From Obrimoposthia wandeli (taxonomy: Eukaryota): a DNA stretch of 64,000 bases. The stretch is from assembly GCA_977020255.1 (NCBI GenBank), contig CDROCS010003853.1:186001-250000 (forward strand), written 5' to 3'. Below the pieces are notes generated by a model. That model had not been told where the DNA came from, searched no databases, and saw only the letters and a list, made by a program, of their open reading frames with translations. Both the position numbers and the translations under genes were made by a program. This document shows, one piece after another, positions 9,598 through 56,825 of this stretch. How positions within the stretch are numbered: position 1 is the first letter of the stretch; every line of letters starts with the position of its first letter.

Positions 9598-9640
9598 TAG
9601 CTCCATTACATATACTCTTTCATATTTAATATTGTTTATA

Positions 9641-20569: not shown

Positions 20570-21060
20570 AATAATAGGCAATTTGAGTTGCTTTTAATAG
20601 AAGTTGGTTCAAACTACCGTGGGCTACTATAGCGTTAGTGATATGATCTAGGTTTTCTGTGAATCCATTTGATAATAACCTATTCTTACAAAATTTAGGG
20701 TTCTCTACTGGTCTAGTGGTGGAGGCGTTTTGCGTAAGGTTTCGGATTCCTATAAGTAACGTGAAAGGTATATGGAAATATTCTAGCAGTGTACGTGGGT
20801 TGCTACCAATGATCAGTTTGTGGTTGATCATGGTCGACAATCGATTGACTACATCTCTTTGATCTGTTCTTCCTAGTAGATCTGGTTTTGCTAGTCCACG
20901 TTAGGTTGTATTAAAGTTGGTTATGTATGTACGCGGGTGTAAATGATAGTGGTGAACATTCTGCACTCGAAATCACATACTGTGATTTGGACTGGGTGAG
21001 CTTTGTTTTCTTTGTCGTACATATTACGATATGCTATTGCTATTGATTTGTGTTTGAAAA
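20570..21060 (-). pseudogene. DEDDh (ISG20/REX4-like) exonuclease remnant, third copy
   Basis: HPRTYITNFNTT*RGLAKPDLLGRTDQRDVVNRLSTMINHKLIIG aligns with TPRERIRNYVKFITGFTKKSLTGKTDAEEVIENAQSILVGNILIG of 29913-30404; QITVCD aligns with SITIID. Confidence 0.6.
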
Positions 21061-21127
21061 CTTCAGGTGTCTCATTCGTTCTAAAAAATGATTTACCTGC
21101 TAATGAAAAAGTAGCTAATCTGTGGTA

Positions 21128-21478
21128 TCAAGGTTCCGTTGGTATGCGGAAAATATATTCGTTTTCTGGCATGGGTTGTTCAACGAATGCATGAGTTATT
21201 GAACTAGTCACTCTTAGGTATACTTTGATAGGACATTTCTGGGTATATCGTTTAACTTTTCGTTCTTGCAACTTATTTCTTATAAGATGTTGGGATGTTT
21301 TATCTTTGCCTACATCGATGGTGTATTTGACTGTTCCTGTATTGAGACATATGGTGAACGGCATGGGTCCAAGATTTGGCAAAAGAAGGTGTATGTGGCT
21401 GCAATGTGCGTCTTGATCAGTTAGTTTTTGGGTTAATGCCATACTTGAGTCGATTCGGAATGTTTTGCACGTTTGCAT
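21128..21478 (-). pseudogene. Unknown accessory ORF upstream of the exonuclease remnant
   Basis: Same position relative to the exonuclease as ORF-X; weak shared motif HLIRNKL vs THIPNKL. Confidence 0.35.
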
Positions 21479-22249
21479 ACACTGTAAGACTTTTGGTCAT
21501 TTCGTTGATTTCATGGCTCAATGTGTGAAACATTACAGGAGTAACTTAGGGTGGTCCACGGTTGGAGGATTAAATTCGGTCATCTGCATTTAATATTGAT
21601 TTTAGATATTTTACTCTTTATATATTCCTAGTTTATTTTAACCTTATATAATTTAACAATCATGATAAAAATGAAAGATTTCATCATTTGCTAGTCGATA
21701 AAAATACGGTTTACAAACAATAATATTTATATTACATAATCGTCTACTGAATAAAAATACATTATAGGATACAATTCCTCTGGTGTTAACAAATTGATTG
21801 ATTAGACAGAAAGTAGGGAAGGTAAATGTGGCCAAATAATGTTCATGGGATACTGTTCAATATCAGGTTAATTGTTGTTATGAGTAAGATAGGATGGTGG
21901 TGGCTCGCTTGGAGGTGCTTCGTAGGTTGGTGAGTGATTTCGGATGATGGTTTTTTTTTCCTTTTTCCCAACGGACTGGTGCTGGATCAATATATTGACA
22001 TTGATTACAACTAATAATTATATATTTCATCTCCTCATCTGTACAGCTTAAATCAGCTTCTTGAATTTTCTTTTTTTCTTTTACATCGTTGTTAATATTA
22101 GAATTTCCATCATTATAAGCTGTTGCTGCAATATGTTCCGATTGATTATTAATTATCTACGTAATTGGTATTATTGTTAAGGCATCTGCTTTATTCTCTT
22201 TCATAGAAACACATTGAATTTTTACAGCTAATTCATATTCAGAAATAAA

Positions 22250-22636
22250 GATAGAGTCAACTGTTGTAGAGTCTGGGAATCTTTAGGTCGGTGAGCAGCA
22301 CGGGCACAGCGAAGTACTCTTTTAACTGTATCAGCAACTGGAGTATGGCTTTTGATCTCATCTAGAGCAGTAGCATTAGAGAATGTAAAGATTTGGTTGG
22401 GTTTGTCGTTGAAAGTGCTGGCTTGACTTTTCATTGAATGGCGACACAGTTCAATATATATTGCTGTCTGGTCTGCAGGGTGAGTATGTTTTTTGCAAAG
22501 ATACTCCATATATCCATTCTCTTTGTATATTTTAAGAACACCATTACAACTCTGACGTTTCACACAACGCCGTATTATTTCATATTTCGATTTCATTACA
22601 ACTTTAACAGTATAAATGAATCCACCTAAACAAAGC
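22250..22636 (-). mobile_element. FLYWCH/MULE transposase fragment, near-identical to 44268-44650
   Basis: KSKYEIIRRCVKRQSCNGVLKIYK...HTHPAD matches the element at 43957-45162. Confidence 0.85.
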
Positions 22637-24546
22637 CACCTATGCCCAGAAATATCCTATCAAAGTATACCTAAGAGCGACTAGTTCAATAACTCATGCA
22701 TTCGTTGAACAACCCATGCCAGAAAACGAATATATTTTCCGCATACCAACGGAACCTTGATACCACAGATTAGCTACCTCTTCATTAGCAGGTAAATCAT
22801 TTTTTTATTCTCAAATACAAATCAATATCAATAGCATATCGTAATATGTACGACAAAGAAAACAAAGCACACCCACAGTCTACGTTTAATTAACATTTGA
22901 TAAGTAGCCATACTATTTACTTTACCGCTATTTTTCAACACTTTATCTATCAAAATGTATCTTTAAATCCTCAATTCCATTGTCTTTCACCTTAATTGTT
23001 GTAAAGCTTAATTCTTTATAATCAGATTCATGCGACAATGTTAGTAAGTTTAATTCATTCATGGCGTCTTCTAGACTACCCAATTATAATTGATTTTCCA
23101 CTATTTCTGATAATGGTGGTTCTTCTATGTCATCTGTTTCGACTTCGAATTCTATCGTAGGTTTAATGGTTAACCTTTTTAGATGCCTACCTTTTCTAAT
23201 AATCATTTTTATAGATTTGAAAATCGTTCCACTAGTGGGAGGAATTTTTTAAAACTTAATTACTTTCTCCTTATGGTGGGTTATTTTGTGCTTGGTATTT
23301 TTATCATCTGTAGTCTCTAATTGTGCGTTGTGATATTTGCTTTTTATTTCTATGTAAGTATTTCTGAGTTTTTCGCTCATTCTCATTTTTTCTCATTTCG
23401 CTTTCTGAGCTCGTGTATATAAGTTCTTCCTCGTTTGTCTTTGATGAGACCTGATTATCAGGTGTGAGTATCGATATGATGTATCATGCATTAGCGGTTG
23501 GAAAAATCTGTTGTGCCCTTCCGATTATGGTTCTACCGTAGAAAAATTAAATACTTACTGTAGTCAAAATAGCATTACTGGTTGTATCTCTAATATACAC
23601 ATGGGCATGTGCGTCGGATGACTATTTTTAATTAACACTTTTAAGATATCTTCATAAGTAGAAATGATTACTCGAGGTGCAACTGATATCATGCCTACCT
23701 CGTTTTGTTCAATTAAAGGCTGTTCGTTAATTAATCATCTGATCATACTTACTTTTCGAGTTTTCACATTAGTTTTTTTTATTTTATACTTATTGTCGAT
23801 CTTTATTTCTACGTTCGCTATTTCTTCGTCTGTGATAACTGTTTTCTCGTTTGACTGTGTCTTAATTTTTGCATCAGCTACATTAATTTACAATGTTACA
23901 TCGATATTTTTGTTGGTTAATTTATACTCATCAGAAATTTACATACTACTGTCTTTCCATCAGAGAACTTTACCTTCATTACGCATAAAATTTCCTGTGT
24001 TTACAGTAATTAAGTGTACGTGTATTAATGTTGATTTGTAAAATTTTTGTGATAATGTTGCGATTATGTCTTGATGTTCGTTTAACATTAGTTTAGGTAC
24101 ACCATGTAATAATGGTTTCTAATTTATATCTAATTCATCTACTTCGAAAGTTAGGTTATGTATACTAATTATATCGTATATGGTGTCCTCATCTACATCA
24201 TATAAGTTGTCATAAAAAACTTTCTGCTTCTGGTAAGGTAAAACTGTTATATGTTACGGTTAAATTTGGTGTCATACGTAATGTTATTTGTAATTTAGTT
24301 AAGTTAAATAAATCATGTTATGTAGGTATTTTAGCTGCTAATGTTCTTCCATCGAAATATGTTATATTTAATTTAAAAGTTATTAATTCCATACATCCAT
24401 TTTTCGAACTCAATTTTTCTAGCTATTAATTCAATATCCGTGTTTAACGTTTATTTTTTTAGAAAATACCATAATTATGTCTTCCTCGTTATCTAAATTC
24501 TCTTCTGGTGTGAAGCATTTTGCCGGGAATTTTCACTGTCAGCTTT

Positions 24547-24977
24547 TGACGATTCTGGAAGTAATTCCCGGCTCTACACGCCCACACGCGTGCAACCGGG
24601 AATTATTTAGGGATTCCCCGGACAATCCGATCTGGGCTCATCTGCGTAGATCTTTGTTGGGGTACGAAACTCACCACAAAAATCCGCCAAGACCACAGAT
24701 CGAAGTGACCCATTAGGGGCTACTCGATCTGTGATCGAAACTTCCCCACATAAATATTATTATTATTATCTCTGGCTTCTCGTGATCTACCGCGAAGTCA
24801 GAGATAATGTGCCGTCCGCCTGATGAGCCCGACATGGAGAAACCGGTTAAGCCGGTCGGGGACTGTTAACTAATCTTATCAGGATTGAAAAATGCCAAAG
24901 TATATTCTAAAATCATTCAATTTCCCTAATTAAGGAAATTTCCCCTGGTTAATTTCCAATTAACGAAATAATTAACA
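24547..24977 (-). mobile_element. LTR-like segment related to the LTRs of the 12.5 kb element; boundaries uncertain
   Basis: 24770-24970 aligns with 29405-29560 and 41070-41280. A possible CTTT 4-bp flank occurs at 24543-24546 and 24978-24981 (could be chance). Confidence 0.6.
24814..24863 (+). ncRNA. Type I hammerhead ribozyme (stem II eroded)
   Basis: GTCCGC CTGATGA GCCC GACA TGGA GAAA CCGG TTAAG CCGG TC GGGGAC; core intact, GUC site at 24855-24857. Confidence 0.75.
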
Positions 24978-25052: not shown

Positions 25053-28000
25053 TCATTTTTTCATTCTTAACATATCCATAGCAGTAAATTCCATCGATGC
25101 TAACAGTATCTGGATTGGTTTTAGTGATACTTTCGTTCTCTGACCGGTATTTTGTTTAGTCACACATACTTTATACTGTTTGCAACATGTTTTTATATTA
25201 TTTTCCATCTCGTCGCAAAAATATTTTCCCTTGATTCTTGATGCAATTTGTCGATTAGATAAATGTCCGCCTAACTTTCCGTCGTGATAATGAATCATTA
25301 ATGTTTGAATTAATGACGTTGGTATCACTACGACTGTTTTGTCTTGATTGTTTACAAAGTACAATATTCTTTCCTTGATAGAATATTTCCTTGATAGAAT
25401 ATTTCTTGCCTAATTCCTCTTCTATATCTTCTTTAACTAGCAGTTCTTGTATTTAACCTGATTTTGAATCATCCTTTTGTTCTTTAACGATTTCTTTATC
25501 GATCTTGGCTATTTTAGCTAAAACTGTCAGCAAATTTGATAACTCTACTTTCATAAAATTTCCTTTTTCGTCTACGTTCTCTAGTCGTGACAAACTATCG
25601 GCGTTTCTGTTGGCTCTACCTGCTCTATGACGAATCTCAAAATCGAATTCTGCTATCTTTGTTAACTATCTGTTCAATTTACTCAATTCAGAACACAGAA
25701 ACGTGTTTGTATAATTATTGAAGTGGTTTATTATCTGTGTATAGAATTATTCTTTTCCCTAAAAAATAATTTCTGAAATGTCTTGTCGAATATACGATCG
25801 CTATACATTCTTTCTCAACTGTATAATATCCTGTTTCTGTTTTATTTAATCATCTGCTTGCGTATGAAATCACATACTATTTTCCTTCATCATCTTCTTG
25901 ACCTAGTACTGCGCCTAAAGCTTAGTTGCTAGCGTTAGTCATCAGTATAAATTTGTTTGAAAAGCTAAACTGGGTGCTTGAATTAACTTTTGTTTTAATT
26001 CCTCATATGCTTTTTGTGCTTCTGCTCCCCAGAATAATTTCTCTCCTTTCCTTGTGAGCTTTCTTATTGGTCCTGCTATCTCTGAAAACTGTTTCACAAA
26101 ACGTCTGTAATAATTAGCTAAACCTAGAAAACTTTGTATTTTTAACGGTTTTCGGTGCTGGGTGCTCTTTTACTTTCTCAATATTACCAGAGTCAGATCT
26201 GGTCCCTTCTTTCTAAACTATGTGACATAAGGAGGTTACTTTGCACTTTGTTGGTTTTAGTTGAAGTTAAGCATTTTTTAACCTTTTAAATATACTTTCT
26301 ATGTTTTTAAAGTGTTCGTTAAAAAATGAGAAATTATGTTATCACTTCTCCTTGTTAGTGTAATGGTACTATGTACGGGCGTTTACGCACTACTTTGTTC
26401 TCAGTTAAGGGTATTGTGTGTTTAATTACTGGTGTTTCTCCCAAATCGTATTGATTCTTAGCTATCACTTTTGGAAATCTATTAAATCATTTATGTAATT
26501 TATCTTTTTTGTTGATGATTTTATCCCGTAGATTTTATTGTTATTTTCTCGTAATTATCACTTCAACTTGTTTATCTAATTTCATTGTGTCTGGTCTGAT
26601 TAATTTCTTTGTACGGCAAAATATCCTCATTTGTTTCATCACAAATGTACAAGGTAAAATTCCGATTATATTTACAGGGTATCCGTTGACTGATATTAAA
26701 TACTGATCTGGCGGTTTCATTTCGCCTTTTTGTTTCTCTGTCAAACATTATTCACTGCTCCTGTATCGACAAGTGCTTTCAATTCCTTGTTTTTTACTCT
26801 TATGGTTGCAGCTGGTCTTAAAACTCCATTCACATTTCCCATCGAGAAAATTATACTTTTTCCGTTTACTTTCATTCTTTTGATCATATTCACTTGTTTT
26901 TACCGCATTTTGTGCATGATACTGCAGTTCTCCTTTTAGCTGATCATTATTCTGCTGGTGTCTCAATTCCTGGTAATACAGTCGCTTCTAACTCTATGAG
27001 TTTTCCTTCTACTCTTATTTTGCATTAAAAACGTCCTTCTGAGCATAGTGGAGTTCCATTCACCACTGTGAATGCCTCTTGTTCCTTATTCATATCTTGT
27101 CGCTTTTTAATAGTCAGCGTGTTAGTGTCAACGATTGTCATTTCGGCTCCTGTATCTATGACAGCTTCATATTCCCGGATATTAAATTCGATTCCAACCG
27201 CTGGTGGGTCACACGAATTACTATTTGTTCATTTCGTTATCATTACATTCTTTTAATAACGCTTAGCTTCCTTATGTAACTGTTGCGTTGGGTAGATACC
27301 TGTAACTGTTGCTGCTTGCTGACATATCTCGTCAGTTGATGACTTAAAACTTGGTCCTGGACTATTGTCGTCGTCACTTCTATTACTGTTGTCATCTCTT
27401 ATGTTTTCTTTCTCGTTACAGTTGTATTTCGCACAAATTATTAATGTCAAACAGTCCTTGATCTTTCCTTAATGCACGTAACTCATTATTGTGATGGCAG
27501 TGCTTTAAATATTTCGCCAATAATGAAAACATCTAATAATCAATTTCCAGGTTACTCCTGTAATTCTATACAAACCGTAAGTTGACAAGATTTGTGAGAG
27601 AAGAATTTATAGAAATTTAATTGTTACGTAAATACCAATTATTTCTGAAAACATTTGTCCTAAAACAAGGAATTTTCCTTATTTATTTTCTAATGTTTTG
27701 TTTGCTGCTTGCTTAAAATGCTCCTCAGACAAAATCATTTCAAAATCAGCAAGGTCTGCTCCTGCTGGCATTACTCGATCTACCATCTCTGTTAAAACTC
27801 TCGCTCTACGAACGGGAAACATTGTCTCGTTCCAAGTTGATTTTAATTCCTCTGGAGTGTATAAACCAGTACAACCTAAATTGTTGAGGATTGAAAATGT
27901 TAAGTATTTTTTCGTAAAATTTTAATTTTTTGGTGAATATTCATTTTAACTCTATTTTCTCTACTATCATTCAATTTAGTGAACACTGTTAATGGTGCTT

Positions 28001-28840: not shown

Positions 28841-29614
28841 TGATAAGTTACAAATAAATAACTAAATTGTATTTGTCGATAATTGAATAATTCTCAACAA
28901 ATACCAGATCAATTTTTCTGGTCAAAATGATACACTCTTTGTCCTGTATAATTCTTGTGTTGTTATTTTCATAGGCATCTCTGTATATATACAAACAAAC
29001 ACAGACAGACACAAACACACAAAAATCAATTTTCATCCGGACAGTTGGAGGGCGATTTGCAGAAACTGTGGCCATAGAGACACAGACCGAGAGAGATATT
29101 TTGCCGCAGCTGGAGAGACTGCACACGCTGTCATGCTATGGAGTTGTCCCAGCTGCTAGAGGCACCCGAAGGCAAGAGAGAAGACCCGACACGGCGACAG
29201 AATCGGTAGGAGAGAATATTGATGATGACAATGATGATGTCGCCGTCGATGATGATGACGACGTCACTGTCGCTGGAATCCACTGTGGACTGATGCATGA
29301 CATCAAATAGATCCGGCCAACATCAGGATAGTGGAGGGCGGCGCTGCACAACCTGCAGACTTAGTGCAAGTAAGTGCCCTTTGTTTATTTTCTCCTTTTT
29401 TATTTCTGACTTTGCGGGCATTTTGCCCACCGCGAAGCCAGAGATAAATCTGCCGCCCCCCTGACGAGCCCGGCAGGGCGAAACCGGTTAAGCCGATCGG
29501 GGACTGAACTAATAAAACTGATTACAAAATGCCAAAGTGTATTTCACTTACCCGAATTAAGAAATAATTTTAATTTTTTAATTTTATTATTTTTTTTTAA
29601 TTATAATCCTAACA
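28841..29614 (-). repeat. 3' LTR of element A (774 bp)
   Basis: Aligns with 40420-41325; preceded on minus by a purine-rich tract AGCCGGAGGA. Confidence 0.92.
29455..29504 (+). ncRNA. Type I hammerhead ribozyme in the 3' LTR (antisense to the element)
   Basis: GCCCCC CTGACGA GCCC GGCA GGGC GAAA CCGG TTAAG CCGA TC GGGGAC; intact core, predicted cut after C29498, one stem III mismatch. Confidence 0.85.
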
Positions 29615-29912
29615 ATCCTCCGGCTAATAAATGTTCTGGCCTCAGAATTCAAATCTCCAGCAAAACACAAATAAAAATCAATTTTTTCCAATTAAATTAC
29701 TTAAAAAATGATAAAACTTTTAAACATTGAAAATGTTCTTGATAAAATAGTAATACTTATTAATGAAACAATAATAATACCTTTGATTATACGTTGTCTA
29801 AAATAAAACATTCATCGGAGTCGGAGTCGGAGTCTGTTATCTCACTTGGGATACTCAACAAATCGTTTAGACAAAATTCCTCCACCAGTCTATCTCTACG
29901 TTTTTCAAAAAC

Positions 29913-30404
29913 TCACTTAATGTTCTTGGTATCCTCTAAACATGTGTGAATCTTCTTCTGTGTTTCTTCTCCAAAATATTTTGATATCATTGTCTTTAAT
30001 CCTATTTTAGGATGGTTATGGCCAAGTTCTGTTCTTATTTCAGTTGATGCACCCAGGTCCATGATTCTAGCAAAATGGTGTTTTTCTAGTCTTAATACTT
30101 TCAAATCATTTTCTAATCCTGCACCTATCAAAATATTTCCTACTAATATTGATTGTGCATTTTCAATGACTTCCTCTGCATCAGTCTTTCCTGTCAAAGA
30201 TTTTTTGGTGAAACCAGTTATAAATTTAACATAATTTCGTATTCTTTCTCTTGGCGTTACTATTTCATGTAATACAATCTGATCTTTTTCATCTATGATT
30301 GTAATGCTAGCCAATGTTTGTTTTTTGTCTACCGTGATGGCCATTTCACAGTCCATGAAATATTTAATTGGAATTTTTGATATATTTGTATTTTCTAAAA
30401 GCAT
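29913..30404 (-). CDS. DEDDh 3'-5' exonuclease, ISG20/REX4 family-like, carried by element A (163 aa)
   Basis: ExoI YFMDCEM, ExoII ILIGAGLENDL, ExoIII IHTCLED; all catalytic positions appear present. Confidence 0.88.
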   Translation of the reverse strand: MLLENTNISKIPIKYFMDCEMAITVDKKQTLASITIIDEKDQIVLHEIVTPRERIRNYVKFITGFTKKSLTGKTDAEEVIENAQSILVGNILIGAGLENDLKVLRLEKHHFARIMDLGASTEIRTELGHNHPKIGLKTMISKYFGEETQKKIHTCLEDTKNIK

Positions 30405-30587
30405 TATTTTATTCGTTTTCCAGATTAACTATATAAAAAATGTATTTCTCCTGGGACTAAATTTTAGGAGATATTCGTTTCTTAACTCTTTTTTATCAAT
30501 GGTATAAGAATGATTTTGTAAAAACATGTGACTTAATTTCTTTTCTTGTTTACTCATTAAATGAGCTCTTCCTTCTGCTCCATGAAT

Positions 30588-30953
30588 TTATATTTCTTCT
30601 ACGTCTAGTAAATCTCCTACTAATTCTGATAAATTTATTCTTACATTGTTGGTGTGGTGCATAGTAAAAATTACACTTTTTCTGCTAGTCTTTGTAATTT
30701 TTAGTTTATTAGGAATATGCGTTTGGTCTTGGAATACCTGTTTTCCTTCTCCATTTTTAAAATATCTATTGCTATACTGTCTTATTCTTCTATATAGGAA
30801 TTTCGCTAAAATGTTCATTGTTGGAGTGCATAATGGTTCTTCCTCTAAACTATTAGTAAGGTCTACGACTGATGGTGAAAAATCGTCCAAACAACTTTCC
30901 CCTACAACTCGGATCCACTTCCGTTTGTTTGTTGAGTACTCCATCTGTAACAT
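30588..30953 (-). CDS. ORF-X, unknown accessory protein of element A (may extend past the stop)
   Basis: Homologous to 55625-55870 (QTHIPNKLKITK..INLSELVGD vs QNYFPNKLKITT..IAISEFLPD). Confidence 0.55.
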   Translation of the reverse strand: MLQMEYSTNKRKWIRVVGESCLDDFSPSVVDLTNSLEEEPLCTPTMNILAKFLYRRIRQYSNRYFKNGEGKQVFQDQTHIPNKLKITKTSRKSVIFTMHHTNNVRINLSELVGDLLDVEEI

Positions 30954-31549
30954 AATTCAGTCGGAGTAAAATATAGAACAATGAAAAATAAAGAATAAAG
31001 AAACATTTTCATGCAACTGTAGAATATGTAGTCATAATTTTGTACAACAGATATATTATATAATAATCAAGTTATCATACTGGCCAAATTAGCCCAATTC
31101 GGATTAATTTCCAGAATCATGTCCATAAATAAAGTTTCGATTCCTGTTGGGAAAAATAAGTCTGATCATTAAGTGTTGGGTCTGTGACTGCAGAGCTAAA
31201 GTTACTCTCCGTTGAGAACTGATTCTATGATAAAGATCATCAATTTTATGTGAATCAGATTTGATTATCTGTTCAAGCTCATTCATTTATGTCTGTTGCA
31301 TTTACTTTGTGTAAATTTTTATTTGTTATATAATATATTATAAATAATATCATTATTTTTATGATTTCTTTTATCGATATTTTTATTGTATTTTTATCTG
31401 ATGATTTTTATTAATATTATTTTGTTTCTGTGAGTTTTTTATTGTTAACATTTGTAAAACAATATTATCGTTAGTTGATCTCAGATTATATCTATGAATT
31501 TTTACTTTTGTATTTTCCTCAGGTACTTGACGACATCTATTTATATGTG

Positions 31550-34500
31550 CTCTTATTTCTTTTGATTTAGGGTCATTTTCAAGTTAAGCGGTTATGTTAG
31601 TTCCGTTGGTACTAATGACTGTATATGGTTTTGATAGTTTGTGTGACAGACCTACGCTGATTTGTGGATTGTGAATCATCACTTTACTTCCATTTTTATG
31701 TTTGATGGTTTAGTTCTTCTATCATAGTATTCTTTGTAGTTTTCTTTTATGTTTTTTACAAATAATTTTTTCAAAAGCTAATTTTATTCTCTCTCTATTT
31801 TCTATTTTGTATTCTGGTATTTCTAAGTATTGAGTGGTAGGTTGTAATAATGTTAGATCAATAGGCATTTGTGGATCTCTGAGGAACATAAGGTAAAAAG
31901 GTGTTTCTCCTGTTGATGCATGTACTGATGTTCTATATGCAAAAAGGCATGGAGGTATGTGTAAATCCAAATCTGTTTGATTGTTGTTAATGTATGATGC
32001 CATCATATCTTCGAGGGTTCTATAAAATCGTTCTAATAATCCATCGGTTTGAGGGTGATATGGAGTTGTGTTAATCTTTTTCATATGAAATATTTCAGCT
32101 TTAGATGCTAACACATTATTTATGAATTCAGGACCTTTGTCAGTTAAAAACTTTCGGGGTGCACCGAAAGTAAAAATTATTTTTTCGACTAAAACCTTCG
32201 CGATGGTTTCAGCCTTGTGATCTTGTGTTGGGAAAGCCTTTGGCCATCTTGTAAAATAGTCGGAGAATACTATTATGTAGCGATTTCCTCGGGGTATTTC
32301 AGGTAATGGTCTCATTTCATCCATGGCAACGATTTCCATGGGGGCTGATGGATAAGGTATTGGCTTTAAAGTAACTTTAGTGGTACGTAACGTGTTTTTT
32401 CGTTTAAGGCATATTTCGCATGTTTTGCACCAATTTTTTACATTTTCTTTCATGTCGATTTAATAATATTTTAGGTTTAACCTTGAAAATGTCTTTTTTG
32501 ATGATAAATGTCCACCTAGTGCTCCATTATGATATTGAAGGAGTAGTTGACATTGTATGTCTTTCGGGATTACTAATGAGTATAAATTTTTATCATTTAA
32601 ATAATATAATATTTCATTACTATATTTATATCGTGATTCGTGACTTTTTAAGTGTTTCCTTAATTTTTCATCTGTTGGAATTTCGTTTATGCTAATGTAT
32701 TTAGCTATTTGTTGAATTTCAGTATCTTTACTTTGAAGTTCTGTAATTACTTTTTCGTCGTATCTAGCTTTTATTATTGTAAAAAGGTTGGATGCTGAAT
32801 TGTCAGTATTTAACATATTTATATCATCTCTAATTCTAGACAAGCAATCTACATTTGCATTCGATTTTTTTTTCTATATTTTATTTCTATGTCATATGTT
32901 TGAAGAATTAATGCCCATCTCATTAATCTAGATGTAGTGTCTTTGTGATTGAAAAGCCATTGTAATGGTCTTTGATCTGTATATACATAAATTTTCCGAC
33001 CAACTAAGTAATGTTTAAAATGTTCCATAGCAAAACAAATAGCTAAACATTCTCTTTCAATTGTTGAGTAGTTTTTTTCATGTTTTTTAAGACCTCTGCT
33101 TGCGTATGCTATTACATGATCTTTCTCGTTATTATCTTGTTGTCCTAACACCGCTCCTAGTGCGTATCCACTTGCGTCTGTCATTACTATAAATGAGTTT
33201 TTGAAATCTGGATATCTGAGTATAGGTTTTTCAATTAGTTTTTGCTTTAAATATTCGTACGATTCTTGTTGTTCTGTTTCCCATTCAAATTTTTCGTCTT
33301 TTTATAATTATTTTATTTAATGGTGTTGCTATTTGAGCTAAATTTTTTATAAATCTACTATAGTAGCCAACTAATCCTAAAGATTCTTGAATATTTTTAA
33401 CAGTTTTTGGAATTGGAAAATTCTTAATCTTTTCCATATTACTTTCGTCTGGTTGTATTCATTTTGCAGACACCGCATGTCCTAAATAATTTACTTTTTC
33501 TTTTATCCATTCACACTTTTTTGGTTTTAATTTTAAACCCGCTAATTTCAATCGTAGAAAAACATTTTCTAAATCTTTAAGATGTTCTTCAAAATTTTTA
33601 GAGAAAATTATTATATCATCAATGTAAACCATTACATGATCAGCGTCCATTAAAATGTGACTCATACATCTTTGAAATGTTGCTGGAACTCCTGTTAGTC
33701 CAAAAGGCAATACATTAAATTCATACAAACCTTCTCCTGTTGAGAAAGCGGTTTTATTTTTTTATCATTTTCTTCAATTTCGATATGCCAATAACCACTT
33801 TGTAGATCGAGAGTTATGAATATTTTGGCGTTTTTTTGTTTGTCTAAAATCTCGTCTATTCTGGGAAGTGGATATGTATCTTTTTGTGTATTCTCATTTA
33901 ATTTTCTATAGTCTACACAGAATCTCAAGGAGCCATCTTTCTTTTTACTTAAACTACGGGTGATGTCCATGGTGAAAAACTTCTTATTATTATGTTATTC
34001 TCTAACATTCCTTTGATTTGTCTTTGGGCTTCATCTCGATAAGCGTATGGTATACGGTAAGGTCTTCGTTTAATTGTTGTATTAGTAGTTAGCGGAAGAT
34101 TATGTTTTATTAGATCAGTACGTCCTAAATCATATTCAGTTTTTGCAAAAATAATATCATATTTTTCTTTTAAGGTTTTTAGTCGTGATTTTTCATAGTC
34201 TATTAATTGTATTTTGTCAAAATTAATTGTTGATGTATCACTTATTGTTTCATTATCAATAAAACTAATAATTTCGATTACACTTATTTTTCCTAGGCGT
34301 ATCCCTGTATTAAGATGAATTTGATTTGTATCTCCATTTAATATTTGGATAGGTATTGTATTATTTTTAATTTTACATATTATGTTGGGTTGTTCTTTGT
34401 TTCTTCTTAATGTTTATATGGCTCAAATAATATGTCTTTGTCTGATACTAAATTTGTTTCTAAGTGTAATATTGTTACCGTTCGTGGTTGTAATATAATA

Positions 34501-34960
34501 TATCCTTTAATTTATATTTCATATTCGCTTTTAGCATTGGCTTTGCGAATATTTTTAATTTGGTTTTGTTCGAAGTCAAAATGTAAATTATTTCCTAATT
34601 TCCTTAATGTATCTATGCTAATAATCATTTGACATGGACAACCTTTCATAATTCTGGTAGGGATTTTTATCGATTTATCACCTATTTTAAATATACAATC
34701 CAATTAGCCTATTATATTTACTGGTTGTCCATTTGCTGCCATAACTTGGCTATTTTCGCTTAACAATGATGATTTTTGATACTCACTTAGAAATGATTCA
34801 TCTAAAACGGTAACGCTTGACCCTGTATCTATTAAAGCTTTTAAACTATAATTATTTATTTCAACTTTTACATATGGTCTTTTGTCATTGTCTAGTTGAT
34901 TTATTGTATAAATTGTCGGTGCAGTCGGCTCTGGGATGACCACTTCATTTTTGTACATTT
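31550..34960 (-). pseudogene. pol of element A: protease (34500-34958), RT (33200-34100), RNase H (32849-33200), integrase (31550-32600)
   Basis: ALIDTGSS; [21 protein letters not shown]; TDASGYALGAVL; HNGALGGH...CKTCEIC, DYFTRW, TDKGPEF, TPYHPQTDGLLER. Confidence 0.95.
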
Positions 34961-35066
34961 TAAAATCGGGATATTTCGGGGATTCTGTATTTTCTGTAAT
35001 TTCGTTGATAGTTAATTTTTGTGATTTTGTTTCTCACATTTCGTTTGATAATGCGTTTACTGTATT

Positions 35067-36960
35067 TTAATGATGATTAAATATAAGAAATTTAGCCAAA
35101 AATGGAAAACATCCCAAAATTAGTTTCCATGTTAATCCACCAACTTTATAAATATAATATGTAGAAAGTATTTGACTTAATAAGATTTTGAAACATATTA
35201 TAAGTGCATAAATACCAACTAATCCTGAAAAACCTTGGCCAAATATTAGAAATTTTCCCCATATTTTTGTCATTGTGTTTTTTGTAGCTTTTACAAAATG
35301 GTTGGGTGACAATAGCAAGTCATAATCTGGACGACTAAATCCATCAGGTACTGATCTTTCGATGATTTGAGTCAAAACTCTTGATCTTATTTGTGGAAAT
35401 AATATTTATTTTCTGAGTTTATCAATATCTTCTTGTATGTATATACCGTTTGTATTTAATTCGTTGTCCGGTTCTATTTCTAAGTTATTTTCAAGGACTG
35501 TTAATTGAAGTTGTTTTGGTTGTGTAACTATGTATCTTCTTGGAAGTGTAATCCATGTATCTTTAGTGATTTGATAAAGTGGTGCCATTAAGTTTGAACA
35601 ATTCATTTCTTTGATACTATAAATATTAAAACGTATTATTCGTGTGATAGGCTCTACAAATAATGAGTAATTTTTATAAGTTATTGGTAATTCTTTTGTA
35701 CATTTGTCATGATGTCTTATTTTTACTATTACTTTTTTGCATTTATATGTGTATAGAACTTCACCCATTACTCTACCGAAAATACCGTCTGACAAAGGTA
35801 ACAAAGGTGTTATCAACTCCGGATTAGTAGCAATAATTGCTAATTTAGTTTTTAAGATTTCTTGATTTAATTTGCAATCGTTGTTAATTGTTTCTCTGTA
35901 TAATGCTTCTATTGTCATTAAGCCTTTATGATAAAAATAATCTATTTTATTGTTAAAATAATCGTAATTTTTAATGTCAAATTTTGTAGGTGTGTATTTT
36001 GCATTTTGTATTTTTTCCTTACTAAGATATATGCCTTTATAGTTTGTTGTATAAATCATGTGTCCACAACGTGTTTCTTCTTTCTTTTTTATAAATCTCA
36101 TTCCTGAGCCTTGATCTGTAGACATTAAAATAGTCGGGGTATTTGCCTTTTGTTGCTTTCGTGTTCTGTATGTTTTAAATATATCTTTTGGTATTTGTTG
36201 ATTAAATTCTGGATCGTCTTTAAATCTTCTACCTTGAATTATTTGAAAATTTTCAGTTTTAAGATGTATTAACTTACATTGTTCTAAATGTACTTTATAG
36301 TATATAATTGAGGAACCTGTGTTACAGTATCTCATGTTGGCTTCACAAAATGGCATTTTCATCATTGTTTTTGTGGATGGGTCAAAAATTGCTTTAAAGA
36401 TTCTAAGTTCTACCTCAAAGTTTTTTATCACAACTAAACCTTTTTGTTTGATTCCCATGACTACATATGTACCTGTCGTACAAGTAACGTCTGATTTTAT
36501 TGAACCAACTACAGTTATCATTTGTTGAAGGATTTTACCTTTAACTGCTCGAACTTTAATTTCTCTATCAATGCGTAATTCACCAGTTGTGAATGCATCT
36601 TTGCAATTTAAAGCATCGACTATTAGTAGTGTTTTTCCGAGTGTGGGTCTCACTATTGAGCTGTGACTATCTGCTCTGCAATGTGTTATAAATGTTTCTA
36701 CGTGTACTCTACACTCGAACAATTCAGCACTTATAAAATCAGTCTCTTGGTAGACGTGGAGTAACTCAGTTCTTTTAATTTTTACCTCGTTTGGGTCTGC
36801 GTCTGCACATTGCTGTAAATCCATCAGTGAGTTCTGTTTTGTATTTTATAAGATGTGCAATCATATGCTTCTATAGCATTTATGGGTTTTATTATATTTA
36901 CTATCAACGTTATATTACTATTAGTTGTATAATTTTATAAATATTTTTTAAATATTCTTT
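35067..36960 (-). pseudogene. env-like class III fusion glycoprotein (chuvirus/gB-type) between gag and pol
   Basis: N-terminal AYDC (~36870, frameshifted), Cys-rich ectodomain (CRVHVETFITHCRADSHSSIV; GEVLYTYKC; CTKELPITY; NGIYIQEDIDKLR), stop at 35406, then a C-terminal TM region WGKFLIFGQGFSGLVGIY. Confidence 0.82.
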
Positions 36961-37199
36961 TATATATTCAGTGAATTTATTGTATTTAACTTTACTCTTT
37001 TTAGTATTTTTTAATTTCCTTTTAGGCTTTGTACCTTTTGTGGTGTTTGTGTGTTCTTTTTTTTTTAGTTTTAATTTTATTTTCTAAAGTTATACAACCT
37101 GTTCCAAACATTTCACCGAATTCAGATTGATCATTTATTTTTGTTGTATTTTGCTCTGAGTTATTAAATTGTTGATGTTATTCTTGATAACGGTTATTT

Positions 37200-38690
37200 A
37201 TTCCTTCTAATTTTTGTTTTAATAGTGCAATATCTCCGTTTTCATATGTTTATTCGTTATTTTCTAATATATGTACTGGATTTTTATAATTTGTTTGAGG
37301 GTTGTATTGTCTGAATTGTGTTGTATTTCGTGTTTGGGGTTGTTGAGGTATGGTTGTACTTTGAAATTGATTTATTAATGTTTTTAGTTTGTTACAATCA
37401 TCTGTAGTATGGTTATGCATGTTGCAAATTTTACAGAAATTTTTGGGTTTTTGAAAAAAAATATTTTGATTATTATATCTGTAATTGTTGGGTCTACTAT
37501 TGCTATTTTGTCTATATTGTAACTTTCAACATGTTTCTAAAGTGTGATTTTCTTTTTTACAGAATTTACAAAATTTGTTATTATTGATCTTACGACAATT
37601 TTCTATTGTGTGATTTTGTAATCCACAATTTGTACACTGTCTATTATGGGTTTGTGGGTTTGTGTCTATATAAATTATTGATTTCTATATAAATTATTTG
37701 ATGTAAATCTCGATGGTTGATTATTTTGGAAATTACTCATTGGGTTTTGATTTGTATTTTGCATATTGTTAAAATTTTGAGTTATTTGAGGTCTTTCTAT
37801 TTTTTCGAAAGACAATGCCGATACTTCTGATGGGTGCAATATATTTAACCGAGTCTCTACTAACTGTGCCTTGGTAATGGCTTGTTGAAAATTTTCTACC
37901 TCTAACAAAGCAGGATGATTTTTAATTTTGTTATTTAATCCGTATAAAAACTTATGTAGTAATAATCTATCTCGCTGAGCTTCAGCAATTTCGGGAAAAG
38001 ATCTTAAGGCTAATCGTTTTAACTCTACGGCAAAAATATTTGTAGGCTCTCCTAATAACTGTTCTCGTTGTCTAAATTGATTTAAATAATTTTGCTCGGA
38101 TTGTGTTCCTATATCATACCCTGAAAATGTTGTACTAAATGTTCCCAGGTGTCTCTATGTTGTTCCGTCAATCCTCTATAAATAGTTAAGACAGTGCCTT
38201 TAAGGTATACCGGAAAAATCCTAAGTTTCTCCGCGTTAGTCCACTCAAATGCCTGAGCAAATGAGTCGAACCTATTCAAAAATTCGGGTAAAGAAGATTT
38301 ATCGCCATTGAAAGCGTCTAATGGGACATTTAATTTATGTGCAGCCATTATTTGAAGTTGGTCGTCTATTTCTATGTTATCTATTTCGTTTAACTGAGGT
38401 TCAGGTGTAACTATTGGTGTTATGCTTTCTGTTTCTTCTATTTCAGTTTTAAAGATATCTGTTAGACTTTCTGAGTCTGATGAAAATGTCTGGTTTGTGT
38501 GTTGAGAGTATGATGGAGTTTCTGGGAAAAATTCGTTTTTTGTTCTTAAACTTGTTTGAGACTTGGGTCTTTGTGGTGGGGATTCTGTTGATTCTGTTCT
38601 TACCAGTCGGGTCTGTTTGGATTTATGAATTTTTATTTATTCAATGTTAATCACCCCTATATTTTTTTATGTGTTTCCGTTTATGTTGTA
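37200..38690 (-). pseudogene. gag of element A with three CCHC zinc knuckles
   Basis: FNGDKSSLPEFLNRF..WTNAEKL; knuckles CTNCGLQNHTIENC, CKFCKKENHTLETC, CKICNMHNHTTDDC (37390-37640). Confidence 0.9.
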
Positions 38691-40399
38691 TATTATTATT
38701 ATTTTTAAGTAAAATATCAATTATGTACGTGATTTTATCTTTGGACGTTAATTGGGCTCGTAATGTTTGAATAACCAATTTTTTAAGTGTTTACTTTAAA
38801 AGACAATCTGCACCAGACTTCTCAAAATGTCGGCTATCCTTGTTTCGCAATCTGGAAAAATAACGAGCACAGAAAAGTCTATTTGTACTTTGAGAGTATT
38901 TTAGGTTAATTATAGTATTCTTAACTTTATAAAAGATACTATAAAACTCTTGCTGTTGGTTAAATAAACTCAACTCTTTTATTATGGTGTACTAAAATTA
39001 TGAATTAAAATATTTCGTATATTTCGATCACTTTCTTTTATAAACGACAAATTACCAAATTGTTGAAACACTTTAACAATAATGAGGGCAAAGAAATATA
39101 TATATATATATATTTATGTAGTAGAAACAAAATTATTTACTTATGCTGTTCACAGTTCAAGTTGGAGTATACGATTCAATATATAAAATTTTAATTTTAC
39201 ACCGCTAGTTATAACGTTAATTATGTCAATTTGTTTGATGTAATGATTCTATGTTTTGAAATTAGTTCGTCAAAGAATGAAAAACAAACATAAAATAGTA
39301 AGTTAAAATTTAAGTAAAAGATAAATTAAATGGTAGTGGTTCAGAACCGAATCTTAAATCAACTGTAATCGCAAAACCGCAAAACCACTTTTAAATGCAA
39401 AATATGGTCAATAAAATCTCTAAACAATAATTATACACTTTAAAATGCTTATACACAATTATTATTATTATTTTTAATTATTTTTCAGTTTAAAAATGAC
39501 TTTATACTTCTCAAATCAAGGTATTCCCACAGTCTCTCTTAATCTGTTCTTACTTTTAATCAACCACTAAAACCACAACTGTTCCCTGACTCTGCGGTTA
39601 TCTGCTTATTTTGGTCTCAGAACCTTTGTTTCGATTATCGCAGAGAAAGGTACAGCGATGCCCAAAATAGTCAAAAACGTTTTACAAGAATTTTTACAAA
39701 AATAATATCTTCATGAGACTGTTAGAAATTCCTATATTGAAAAATATAATTTTGAGTTTTTACTTATCAAAATCAATTGTATCCTAGAATATAATAATCG
39801 ATTTTTCAACAAAGAGAAATTAAAATTTCTTAAAAATGTTTCTATAAACAACTCAGTTAAAATGAGAATCAAAAACACTCAAAACAAAATATAAAAATTA
39901 AATTCGAATTGTATTTTTAAGTAAAAATTAAATTAAAACGATGTGTAGGGCAAACTATTTTAATAAGACGTTAATGTAAAATCAGTATCAATAATTTTAT
40001 AACGCGTAATTTTAGTCTCTTTAATATAAAAATCATATTCAAAGTTTTTGTAATACAATTACACAAAAATTTTAGTTTGTTATAAATAAATCAAAATCCG
40101 TATAACAACGTGTTAATTCAATATCCCTTCAAATGTTAATTGATATATTTATAAAATGTAATTACGCAAAAATTGGTATTTTATAAATAAAGTCAAAATT
40201 ACAATCCGTATAATAACCTGTTAATTTAATATCCCTTCCAAACCAATTTTAATACTTAAATAATGCAATTACGTAACAACAAAAAATTCTTTTATAACCA
40301 AAATCAAAATTAAAATCAGTTTATTTTCAAAATTAAATATTAAATAATATCAAATGCAAAAAAAATAAAGAAAAACGACCTGTGTTTTCTCGCAGTTCT

Positions 40400-40417
40400 A
40401 TCACGTCAGGCTCTCCA
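40400..40417 (-). promoter_or_regulatory. Primer-binding site of element A, tRNA-Trp-like
   Basis: TGGAGAGCCTGACGTGAT, 15/18 match to canonical Trp PBS TGGTGACCCCGACGTGAT, 2 nt after the LTR end. Confidence 0.8.
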
Positions 40418-40419
40418 AA

Positions 40420-41325
40420 TAATAAGTTACAAATAAATAACCAAATTGTATTTTTTCGATAATTGAACAATCCCCAACAAATACCAGATCAATTCTTCTG
40501 GTCAAAATGATAAGTTACAAATAAATAACCAAATTGTATTTGTCGATAATTGAATAACTCTCAACAAATATCAGATCAATCCCTCTGCTCAAAACGATAC
40601 ACTCTTTTTCCTATATAATTCTTGTGTTGTTATTTTCATAGGCATTTCTGTATATATACAAACAAACACAGACAGACACAAACACACAAAAATCAATTTT
40701 CATCCGGACAGTTGGAGGGCGATTTGCAGAAACTGTGACCATAAAGACACAGATCGAGAGAGATATTTTGCCGCAGCTGGAGAGACTGCACACGCTGTCA
40801 TGCTATGGAGTTGTCCCAGCTGCTAGAGGCACCTGAAGGCAAGAGAGAAGACCCGACACGGCGACAGAATCGGTAGGAGAGAATATTGATGATGAAAATG
40901 ATGATGTCGCATTCGATGATGATGACGACGTCACTGTCGCTGGAATCCACTGTGGACTGATGCATGACATCAAATAGATCCGGCCAACATCAGGATAGTG
41001 GAGGGCGGCGCTGCACAACCTGCAGACTTAATGCAAGTAAGTGCCCTTTGTATATATTTTTCTTTTTATCTCTGACTTCGCGGGCATTTTGCCCACCGCG
41101 AAGCCAGAGATAAATCTGCCGTACCCCTGACAAGCCTGGCAGGGCGAAACCGGTTAAGCCGGTCGGGAACTGAACTAATAAAACAGATTACAAAATGCCA
41201 AAGTGCATTTCACTTACCTGAAATAATATTTCCCTACTTAAGGAAATTTTCTCCCGTTATTTCTTAATTAAGAAATAATTTAAATTTATTTATTTATTTT
41301 TTTTTTTTTAATTATAATCCTAACA
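40420..41325 (-). repeat. 5' LTR of element A (906 bp; includes an ~88-bp tandem duplication at the U5 end)
   Basis: Aligns with 28841-29614; 40420-40507 is repeated at 40508-40595. Confidence 0.92.
41121..41170 (+). ncRNA. Type I hammerhead ribozyme in the 5' LTR (G8A core mutation, likely inactive)
   Basis: GTACCC CTGACAA GCCT GGCA GGGC GAAA CCGG TTAAG CCGG TC GGGAAC. Confidence 0.8.
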
Positions 41326-43956: not shown

Positions 43957-45162
43957 GGATCTAGGACATTTCGGACACGGACGTTTCGGACACGGATGTT
44001 TCGGACTAGGACCTTTCGGACTAACCTTTTATTGAAGTAGGACGTTTCAGACTATTAAGAATTTTTATCTTCTAATTTTAATATTTAAAATATATTTTGG
44101 GTTAATTAAGTTTATTTGAAGATGGCGTTCATTATTTTTGAGATTTATTACTAAATTTAGATTTCAGCCAATTTATATGAAATTGTTGTACTTTTGTGTC
44201 CAATTATTCATTCAATTCAGGAAAAATTACATAATGGAGATTATCAATACCAAAAGAAATGGAATAAAGCTTTGTTTAAGTGGCTTCATTTATACTGTTA
44301 AAGTTGTAATGAAATCGAAATATGAAATAATACGGCGTTGTGTGAAACGTCAGAGTTGTAATGGTGTTCTTAAAATATACAAATAGAATGGATATATGGA
44401 GTATCTTTGCAAAGAACATACTCACCCTGCAGACCAGACAGCAATATATATTGAACTGTGTCGCCATTCAATGAAAAGTCAAGCCAGCACTTTCAACGAC
44501 AACCCAACAAAATCTTTATATTCTCTAATGCTACTGCTCTAGATGAGATTAAAGCCATACTCCAGTTGCTGATACAGTTAAAAGAGTACTTCGCTGTGCC
44601 CGTGCTGCTCACCGACCTAAAGATCCCCAAATTCTACAACAGTTGACTATTGCTGATCATTGGTGTCAGACCACCTGTGAAAACGCTACCAACTTCTTCG
44701 CGTACGACAGCGGTCAAGATGCTGAGGAACGTGTCGTCGTAATTTCTACTGACTCCCACTTTAAACGTCGTGCCTCTTGTGACACTTGGTACATAGACAG
44801 TACTTTTGCAGTTGCACCACACCTCTTTCATCAGCTGTATCTTATTCAAGGACACTGTAATGGTCTCTTTTACCTCTTGTCTATCAGCATCTTCGATCGA
44901 ACTAAATTAGTTGAAAACTACCAATTTCTTATAAATTGGCTGAAATCTAAATTTTGTTAAAAAAATCTCAAAATAACGAATTGAAATCTTATAAATTGAC
45001 CCAACAAATCTTGTAAATTGACTCAAAAAATCTAGTAGAACGAAGACCATAGTCAACTAAACTTAATTGACACAAAATATATTTTAAATCTTAAAATTTA
45101 AAGATAAAAATTCAAAAAAGTCCGAAAAGTCCTACTTTAAAAAAAGTCCTATCCGAAGCACC
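43957..45162 (+). mobile_element. MULE (FLYWCH + MULE transposase) element, internally deleted
   Basis: Sub-repeated TIRs (GGACRTTTCGGAC arrays; TCCGAAAAGTCC at the right), near-TSD ATTTTTAAC/ATTACTAAC, FLYWCH domain, DTWYIDSTFAVAPHLFHQLY. Confidence 0.85.
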
Positions 45163-50145: not shown

Positions 50146-50194
50146 GTAAGCAGTATGATTGTCTTTCATTTCTGTGACCCTATTTTCTTTCTAG

Positions 50195-54979: not shown

Positions 54980-55450
54980 CTACCTTAATCTAAAATTTTT
55001 TCTGGTGTGGGTTGCATCTTTCATGCTGGTGTGAACTTCTGCTTGTGTTTTCATGTGTAGGTATTGGTGCACCATGTTTGCGAGTCCAATATTTGAATGG
55101 TTGTGATTTAACTCGGCTCCTATAGTCGTTGATGTTCTTAAGTCAAAGATGATGAACAACATCTACCTTTGTAATCGTAATGCTTTCAAGTCCTTTGTTA
55201 AACCTACGCCTATGGTTACGTTTCCAAACACAATGTTTTTTAAATTTCTCTATCATTTCTTCAGCATCCCTACAACTCTGCAGCTTTCTATCTGATAACC
55301 ATGTTATTCTTATCACATAGCTTGTTACTATTTTTCTGGTCACGCATAGTGTACCTATTATTACGTTGCTAATGTAATTTATTATAGACACACTTGCTAA
55401 TACTGGTTGCTTGATCACTTATATGGACATTTAACAATCAATGAACAGTT
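54980..55450 (-). pseudogene. DEDDh exonuclease remnant, second copy (element C)
   Basis: FIDC*MS, LASVSII, DAEEMIE, ELNHNHSNIGL..M..Y...TQAEVHTSMKD align with 29913-30404. Confidence 0.8.
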
Positions 55451-55624
55451 ATGTGTGTCTCTTCGTTTTTTTCAATTCTAAAAGGGCTATCAGTTGTGGA
55501 TTTTCCGTTTTTCTTATCTTTTTGATAAATAATAGGTTTGAATATTTTCCTATTTTTATGCAATACGCATTTTCCAATTGTGCTGCTTTCAATGTGTAGG
55601 TCTGATTACCCATCATGAGAAAAT

Positions 55625-55870
55625 TCAAGGTCTTGTCTGATCAGTCTTTAAATGGACTACTTCTAATGCTAAGAGAATATAGATTTTTTCGCATTCGCCA
55701 TCTGGTAAAAACTCGCTAATGGCTATGTGGATTGGCCTATATTCGTTGGATGAAATCAATGTGCTTGTTCTTTCTTCTGTGGTGATTTTTAGTTTATTGG
55801 GAAAATAATTTTGATTAGAAAACCTTTTTTCTTCTACCGTTTCTAAAAATGCGACACTAAACTGACGCAT
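55625..55870 (-). pseudogene. ORF-X homologue (element C)
   Basis: PNKLKIT motif and same position upstream of the exonuclease. Confidence 0.6.
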
Positions 55871-56825
55871 TCTTTGGTAAAAAATCTTGCTAAAAACGAT
55901 TTTTCTTGCATATATTCTGGTATTCCTCTTAAACGTTTTGCTGGATTTTCTGTTTTATCATACCGAATGGGTCTCTTTTGGTCTGGAATCGTGTCCAGGT
56001 GATTGCCATCCATATGTTTGTCTTAATTGATTTATTATTCGTCTAGGATAAAAGAAATCGTTTAGCATTTTTAAGGATCATAATAAAGTCAGTCTGTTCA
56101 TGTTGTATGTGGGATTTGTCATGATGATAATTTATTATAGTCAACCAAAGAAATTATTGCCTTTACATTATGAGAATTGCAGGAATTATTTTAACCAGGA
56201 TTATGTTCGTTAGTGTTTATATGTGAGTCATATCCATCATCAAGTGTTGAGTTATTTGGAGCAGTAGGATACATGGTCATATAAGAATTTATCATGTGGC
56301 TCTAGGTCATCATTTGTCTTTGAAATGAGGTTATAGTCGATAGTTGGCTTAGTGTTTGTAGTATTAAATAATCTATTCTGCCAAAACTATGGACTAACCT
56401 CCTTTCGAGTTCATCAACTGTTAATTCACTATTTATTTTTCTTCCACATTTTGTCTAATTATTTGTTTCAAATAATCATTTTGGTTTATGATCTTTATAT
56501 AATAGTCGTCATGTTGTTTGTAAACATCTCGTATCTTTTTCTCTATTTTTTGTTGCATTTTTGCAAGGTTTTGCTATTCAGTTCAATATTATCTAAAATA
56601 GTCATTATTATTATTTCAGGATACGTTTCCTGGTGATTTTATTTTATAAAATTATTTCTATTATACTGTTTATGGTACATATTTCTTGTTCCTATCTATT
56701 TTATTACTAAATTAATATTGATTTACTTAATTCTACTAACAGTATATATTAATTAAATTGTTTCTGTTTCTTGAAATTAGGTTATTGTATTGTTTTTCTT
56801 TCTCTATTCTCTATTACAGTGTTTT

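Follow-up and report, generated by a model that had tools for sequence, protein, structure and literature searches.

ORF3, a DEDDh exonuclease gene with a predicted AlkB-like domain carried by envelope-bearing Ty3/gypsy elements

An open frame for a DEDDh-type exonuclease in the window (the whole 64,000-nucleotide stretch of DNA analysed here) is, judged by alignment with longer relatives, the C-terminal exonuclease domain of a broken two-domain gene, ORF3, which lies in a decayed Ty3/gypsy element that we call element A. As far as sequences can tell, it is almost certain that ORF3 represents a two-domain, element-borne family, and by analogy with nucleases of known function we regard it as a likely counter-defence nuclease of envelope-carrying Ty3/gypsy elements, with a probability of about 0.5. 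The fusion of a DEDDh exonuclease to an AlkB-fold domain in LTR elements is apparently undescribed. The copy in element A is most likely dead, an ordinary broken gene that adds little beyond pointing to the family.

The order of genes in element A is gag - Monjiviricetes-type G - PR - RT - RNase H - IN - ORF3, and its features and the further ORF3 copies of the window are as follows.

28841..41325, minus strand: element A, a decayed Ty3/gypsy LTR element of 12.5 kb with TG...CA ends and a 4-bp target-site duplication
40420..41325, minus strand: 5' LTR with an internal duplication of ~90 bp
~40417-40400, minus strand: stretch starting with TGG after the 5' LTR, resembling a primer-binding site
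37250..38636, minus strand: gag region in several frames, similar to the Retrotrans_gag-bearing ORF of locus L005 (E 2e-11)
34908..36845, minus strand: envelope-like G glycoprotein with in-frame stops (PF24664 Monjiviricetes_fusion, E 1.5e-55)
31401..34943, minus strand: pol (PR, RT, RNase H, IN), interrupted by stops and shifted in frame 5 times
29787..30953, minus strand: ORF3, ~388 codons when read through the breaks, with two domains, an acidic tail and an inferred start codon
30462..30797, minus strand: N-terminal domain of ORF3, taking in most of ORF-X; an AlkB-like barrel is predicted on the intact relative P0002
30404->29913, minus strand: the 163-codon frame, from ATG to stop, that covers the DEDDh exonuclease domain of ORF3
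29615..29625, minus strand: short purine-rich stretch right before the 3' LTR, a weak polypurine-tract candidate read from the sequence
28841..29614, minus strand: 3' LTR, beginning with TG at 29614
54992..55915, minus strand: second whole two-domain ORF3 copy, more broken, with 58% nucleotide identity to the copy in element A over 985 columns
20658..21010, minus strand: third exonuclease-domain remnant, more diverged, with the ExoII acidic residue absent

Element A has LTRs, a gB/mononegavirus-type env between gag and PR and the order PR-RT-RH-IN, and ORF3 is an accessory ORF of its own, located after pol and ahead of the 3' LTR. The first-pass annotation had described the 163-codon frame as a retroelement-borne exonuclease, and we find the motifs where it had placed them, DCEM at residue 18, NDL at 99 and HTCLED at 153, together with the full catalytic set (D18, E20, D100, H153, D158). 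It had also located the frame correctly, 3' of integrase and of ORF-X and about 290 nt ahead of the purine-rich stretch that abuts the 3' LTR. In a phmmer comparison with solved structures the frame matched SDN1 (E 2e-8), ISG20 (6e-4) and ISG20L2 (7e-4), its catalytic positions lining up with theirs, and its sequence likeness to ISG20/SDN1-type exonucleases is beyond chance. A word-index protein search gave no match for the 163-residue frame and only 2 proteins for a family alignment (A1).

ORF-X, which had been taken for a gene of its own, proved to be the N-terminal domain of the same protein, since ORF-X, the intervening stretch and the exonuclease form one frame that is interrupted by stops at 30590-88, 30431-29 and 29915-13, and since P0002 (from 30794) and P0004 (from 30866) each give a single HSP that reaches 29874 and spans all three stops. 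The pairwise identity of the window ORF3 to these full-length relatives is 32% over 308 columns. The N-terminal 184 residues of the window protein, which contain no exonuclease sequence, match nine of the 150 best exonuclease matches at E<0.05, and all nine are members of the family described below. The third stop is premature: it cuts the protein 5 residues after the ExoIII Asp (D158), 18 of 19 relatives carry on for another 22-208 residues (the exception, P0022, ends 1 residue past the Asp), and the helix that holds the Asp, which extends 10 more residues in the P0002 model, is incomplete in the window copy.

The frame had been reported to remain open while gag, G and pol of the same copy are broken. 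The breaks in gag, G and pol are real, and the frame itself is cut by premature stops as well. We counted 10 (strict) to 17 (all) breaks in the 1790 codons of G-pol, a density from which 1.9-3.1 breaks are expected in the 331 aligned codons of ORF3, and 3 are observed. The probability that any given 163-codon stretch remains open is 0.21-0.40, and longer open stretches exist in G (477 codons) and in integrase (246 codons), so the proposed selective preservation of the nuclease in this copy fails. The two LTRs differ at 35 of 720 aligned sites (4.9%), a divergence that by itself would account for 0.8 new stops in ORF3, so that decay before insertion or sequence error may contribute to the three found. 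This excess would also fit a stand-alone exonuclease of 163 residues whose frame selection has kept open, as would an ATG 17 codons ahead of the first catalytic residue and the presence of all five catalytic residues. Such a frame, or a recent host REX4/ISG20 retrocopy, is nevertheless largely refuted and hardly credible to us: homology crosses all three stops, the last helix is cut, the break density equals that of G-pol, the second window copy has the identical two-domain layout, and the tree places the family away from the host groups. An alternative genetic code behind the ORF3 stops was rejected, as all three stop codons occur and pol also has frame changes.

To characterize the family, we used an exhaustive protein search, which returned 1211 proteins at E<=0.001, and examined the best 150. 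Its top matches are proteins of 358-500 residues in which the exonuclease begins near residue 170-215. Among the best 150 matches 28 were assigned to the element-borne family. Twenty of these match a profile of the N-terminal domain at E<=4e-16 (the profile was built with 19 of these or near-copies of them, and P0141 is independent), P0038 matches it at 0.002, and the remaining 7, short or partial proteins, were included for their motifs and then borne out by the tree. In a quick tree of 150 rows, from which the short row P0076 was left out, the 28 proteins and the window copy lie on one side of a branch and the 121 others on the other side (SH-aLRT 95). A careful tree of 60 rows under a mixture model, with 31 of the 121 host-type rows hand-picked across the quick tree, separates the family from 30 of these 31 by a branch with 100/100 support and a length of 0.88; the long-branched outside row P0103 falls within the family. 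The window copy groups with P0002, P0004 and P0005. The input of both trees consisted of matches selected by their likeness to the window protein, and the host rows were read from their motifs as REX4-like or REXO1/SDN-like, with no named ISG20 among them, so the subfamily of the donor is not fixed. Within this sampling the family lies outside both large host-type groups and is not nested in the REX4-like clade, and we conclude from the sequences that it is distinct from the REX4-like and REXO1/SDN-like host groups sampled, real and old. A specific ISG20 or REX4 origin, as put forward in the first-pass annotation, thus finds no support in the trees, and an ISG20 origin is further unsupported because ISG20 is a vertebrate interferon-induced gene and the host looks like a flatworm. 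A search with the family profile itself gave ISG20L2 (6e-30), ISG20 (5e-24) and SDN1 (3e-21).

The five catalytic positions are kept in all 20 aligned rows of A1, 7 of them with Glu at the ExoII Asp. The ExoIII His is found in 28 of 29 rows, with a gap in the last, and a Tyr of the DEDDy type was not found there. Around the active site the family departs from the other matches: Met after the ExoI Glu occurs in 2/29 family rows versus 116/121 others, the ExoII His in 14/29 versus 113/121, and a new Asp follows the ExoII His position in 26/29. In ISG20, Met14 and Arg53 contact the ribose 2'-OH (PMC9157404). The equivalent of Arg53 is Arg in none of the 20 aligned rows (Val in the window copy, which retains the Met), and a preference for RNA can therefore not be assumed. 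PF00929 scores above its cut-off in 14 of 19 relatives and below it in the window read-through. No relative was found among the IMG/VR viral contigs with two sub-family alignments as queries. In the ESM Atlas, full-length P0009 gave RNase_T clusters only, at 0.78, which we regard as a lead. P0009 itself is represented by 24 near-identical records, and 11 of the 15 listed lie on contigs of 15.6-17.0 kb, as a high-copy active element in many assemblies would give.

Structure prediction agrees with these assignments. The full-length model of P0002 has a pLDDT of 85, and its exonuclease part aligns in VIA-align with ISG20 at Z 20.6 (rmsd 2.0, 161 residues aligned), followed by Pan2 (Z 18.6), SDN1 (14.9), RNase D (10.7) and the arenavirus nucleoprotein (~10); Foldseek likewise gave ISG20L2 and ISG20 as best matches of the model. 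The exonuclease domain is therefore predicted to have the DnaQ-like fold. The N-terminal domain of P0002 folded alone (pLDDT 92) as a double-stranded beta-helix, with Ofd2 as the closest structure (Z 11.6, rmsd 2.8, 132 of 138 residues aligned), then ALKBH6 (Z 11.2, rmsd 3.5, 136 aligned), a viral prolyl hydroxylase (Z 10.6) and ALKBH7, OsALKBH1, NMAD-1 and ALKBH5 (10.1-10.3). AlkB and prolyl hydroxylase matches are tied within 1 Z unit, and cupins reach Z <=9.7 over ~95 aligned residues, only ~2 Z units under the top. With Foldseek on the PDB, cupins and ALKBH5 appear at E ~1e-3 to 1e-4, ALKBH5 with the higher TM-scores. The best viral models were those of 2OG-Fe(II) oxygenases, together with replicase polyproteins from vitiviruses, closteroviruses and Picornavirales, which we take to carry AlkB domains. 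Searching with the N-terminal domain in Pfam, among PDB sequences and in the ESM Atlas yielded no usable match. We predict from the models that the domain is an AlkB/2OG-Fe(II)-like barrel; this common fold alone shows no function.

Whether the barrel still works as an enzyme can be judged from its residues. An HxD/E iron motif occurs in at most 4 of 23 rows, which are near-copies, no second His is conserved, and the HxD/E...H triad with a 2-oxoglutarate-binding Arg was not recovered when strand order was used to infer the structural mapping. The conserved polar columns among the 23 rows are a His (21), a Glu (17), an Arg (14) and an Asp (12). As no HxD/E motif is conserved, we infer that AlkB catalysis was lost and that the N-terminal domain would be a non-catalytic binding domain. 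That it is an active atypical oxygenase or demethylase, with the fusion coupling modification or repair to trimming, seems very unlikely to us: the match to AlkB/2OG-Fe(II) enzymes does extend over the whole domain, beyond the cupin core, and the His and Glu columns are conserved, but the iron motif and the second His are lacking as described and the domain is 45-80 residues shorter than its top structural matches.

The link between ORF3 and the elements was confirmed at further loci. A metagenome scan yielded seven loci (L001-L007), all from one assembly. In L001 and L003 an intact ORF3 comes after an open G-PR-RT-RH-IN frame of 3210 and 3005 codons, with an RT ~70% identical to that of element A; no LTR pair was present within the fetched DNA. 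The contigs of relatives measure 12-17 kb. In L005 (1347-6782) the exonuclease gene lies 2.1 kb upstream of the gag ORF. This could mean that the accessory genes of this subgroup lie ahead of gag, or else that the two ends of the element are joined via an LTR in the contig. L004, L006 and L007 are 68-84% identical to L005 or to each other, and L002 is too short to show its genomic context. A TRAF-like gene (RING, zf-TRAF, MATH; PF21355) is found within L006:300-3999 and at L004:640-1845 (E 2e-27 and 7e-29), and in L006 two RING-finger ORFs of the same strand also lie upstream of the exonuclease gene, which at both loci thus belongs to a row of accessory ORFs that share one strand. Such neighbours occur in only 2 of the 7 loci and are absent at element A, L001 and L003; by analogy they would be host-signalling cargo, as in the planarian element Burro (PMC6431247). 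Thus, sequence context, read for a few of the 28 proteins, places the ORF3 family in elements, beside G-pol or gag.

Both ORF3 domains are under purifying selection by these estimates. Six pairwise comparisons among the four intact copies of L004-L007 gave dN/dS values of 0.03-0.05 (exonuclease) and 0.05-0.11 (N-terminal domain). Saturation of dS affects several of these pairs; in the least saturated one the exonuclease shows 42 synonymous versus 6 non-synonymous differences. Because all seven loci come from one metagenome assembly, the estimates rest on probably one host. The idea of a captured cellular nuclease used as an accessory gene thus holds for the lineage, which keeps a conserved accessory gene of cellular type, and was given up for the ISG20/REX4 origin and for preservation in this copy. 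Two outcomes that had been named as fatal to it did not materialize for the family: it is no recent host retrocopy confined to this insertion, as the separate branch, the other loci and the other window copies indicate, and its catalytic residues are retained.

Exonucleases have been described in LTR elements before. The LTR retrotransposons Juno and Vesta of bdelloid rotifers carry a DEDDy exonuclease as ORF3 (Rodriguez et al. 2017, PMC5408684), and accessory DEDDy ORFs of rotifers are cited as known in PMC6338049. Like the rotifer ORF3 as described there, the ORF3 reported here is a DEDD-superfamily 3'-5' exonuclease encoded in a separate ORF after pol with intact catalytic residues; it is nearer to element-borne copies than to host enzymes, and DEDD is changed to DEED in some members. 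In contrast to the rotifer enzymes, which are RNase D-like and of the DEDDy type, the ORF3 described here is of the DEDDh type and of the REX/ISG20/SDN/PAN2 branch, a difference which implies independent capture. It also adds the AlkB-fold domain and occurs in elements with an env-like G, whereas most Juno and Vesta elements are described without env. ORF3 therefore seems to work like the rotifer system yet stands outside that group, and by the sequence tests run it is not an ISG20 or REX4 orthologue. It shares with host REX-family enzymes (ISG20, ISG20L2, AEN, REXO4/Rex4, REXO1, SDN1, PAN2) the fold, the ExoI D-x-E, the ExoII Asp and the ExoIII H-x4-D, and differs from them by its deep separate branch, the AlkB-fold fusion and its residence in elements. 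Similarly, the N-terminal domain shares with AlkB/2OG-Fe(II) dioxygenases (Ofd2, ALKBH1/5/6/7) and the AlkB domains of RNA-virus replicases a predicted double-stranded beta-helix over 129-137 of 138 residues, and differs by the absence of conserved HxD/E...H ligands, by an identity of only 7-17% and by its fusion to an exonuclease.

The elements themselves belong to a known kind. GAG-ENV-POL gypsy elements have been reported from flatworms, nematodes and bryozoans, and they do not form one clade (Chary and Hayashi 2026, PMC13524379). As in these elements and in the planarian Burro/GYPSM1, a mononegavirus-like fusion glycoprotein is encoded between gag and pol, intact relatives having it in frame, and the host is probably a flatworm. 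Burro (PMC6431247) also shares the TRAF/MATH and RING cargo, here in L004 and L006, and differs in size (>30 kb versus 12.5 kb for element A). An exonuclease or AlkB-like ORF is mentioned neither in the main text and the seven text-searchable supplements of PMC13524379, long cells and figures aside, nor in the Burro section of PMC6431247. Searches of the open-access literature brought up neither a REX-type DEDDh ORF in LTR elements nor a fusion of such an exonuclease to an AlkB fold.

As counter-defence nuclease, ORF3 would be expressed from its own subgenomic or spliced RNA, apart from Pol. Its AlkB-like domain would bind single-stranded nucleic acid without modifying it and present the 3' end to the two-metal DEDDh site, which would hydrolyse the strand in 3'-5' direction. 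The enzyme might thereby clear away nucleic acids that betray the element to the host or lead to its silencing, candidate targets being small-RNA guides of the host or aborted RNA and cDNA by-products of the element itself; in element A the gene is decaying along with everything else. Enzymes with comparable tasks exist, as SDN1, the best match of the frame among solved structures, degrades small RNAs and the DEDDh domain of the arenavirus nucleoprotein erases immunostimulatory RNA. An extension of this model that we consider unlikely is that the dead AlkB domain, possibly derived from an RNA virus, reads methylated nucleotides and steers the ISG20-like nuclease to them. If so, one protein would combine two roles that in mammals are divided between ISG20 and the reader YTHDF2, on which ISG20 depends (PMC7046284), with the nuclease turned on host silencing RNAs or immune transcripts, and this would be a retroelement-encoded, mark-guided RNA destruction system.

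Two other roles have to be weighed against counter-defence. Somewhat unlikely in our view is an enzyme of the replication cycle, packaged or present at assembly sites, that would trim genomic RNA, primer tRNA or cDNA 3' ends or edit RT errors. REX-family and ISG20L2 enzymes trim 3' ends of structured RNA and ISG20L2 is the best profile match, viral AlkB domains repair their own genomes, the loss of the Arg53-equivalent would permit DNA substrates, and the elements are large, all of which would suit such an enzyme. A function in 3'-end processing has also been suggested for the rotifer DEDDy ORFs (PMC5408684). Yet ORF3 is not fused to Pol and its position varies between subgroups, ordinary gypsy elements replicate without it, including an unrelated one in the window (56823-60849), and host-modulating cargo surrounds it in two of the seven loci. 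Its separation from Pol, its absence from ordinary gypsy elements and the TRAF and RING cargo are the reasons why we favour counter-defence. Distinctly unlikely is an ISG20-like factor for antiviral defence or superinfection exclusion that would degrade the RNA of incoming viruses or rival elements to the benefit of the host cell. ISG20, the closest fold, is a broad antiviral exonuclease (PMC9157404), the G gene shows that the elements met negative-strand RNA viruses, and antiviral accessory domains of retrotransposons have already been proposed (PMC6338049). A gene of this kind should outlast the dead copies that carry it, yet each of the three window copies is broken, that of element A at least as much as G-pol, and this loss of ORF3 from dead copies weakens the antiviral reading.

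The counter-defence reading would matter because, to our knowledge, very few counter-defence proteins of invertebrate retroelements have been found. With DEDDh here and DEDDy in rotifers, ORF3 is a second case, independent of the first, in which LTR retroelements have captured a 3'-5' exonuclease, and two such captures suggest that nucleases solve a recurring problem for these elements. As a small, soluble two-domain enzyme with many intact members, it makes resistance to small-RNA silencing directly testable.

Among sequencing runs compared by shared words, four runs of one study share 0.34-0.36 of the words, and no RNA run is listed. Several other features were seen in the window. The second ORF3 copy likely belongs to a related element with a pol remnant at 61526-62388. 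The unrelated gypsy element at 56823-60849 (minus strand; 92-bp LTRs at 56823-56914 and 60758-60849, without G and without ORF3) was apparently inserted between this remnant and the second copy. We rejected the idea that the copy rides on the unrelated element, because that element is bounded by LTRs of its own and does not include the cassette. At 25068-27897 (minus strand) there is a third decayed G-pol element, similar in kind to element A, followed by a broken coding sequence at ~22900-24700. Two inverted-repeat-bounded stretches, 20993-22875 (abutting the third exonuclease remnant) and 44015-45157, have a transposase-like segment in common that is 97-98% identical and in opposite orientation. 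A host gene for the 26S proteasome subunit Rpn3/PSMD3 lies on the plus strand at 45767-47188 and 49921-50247; its first eight organism-named matches are flatworms with 56-63% identity, which makes a flatworm the likely host, and the best match that names no organism reaches 77%. Two frames at 62723-64000 resemble, by eye, what we take to be remnants of a Polinton/Maverick capsid and cysteine protease. Positions 1-13400 form a near-identical tandem duplication with a period of ~6.7 kb, which could be genuine or an assembly artefact, with arrays of 21-22-bp repeats in both orientations.
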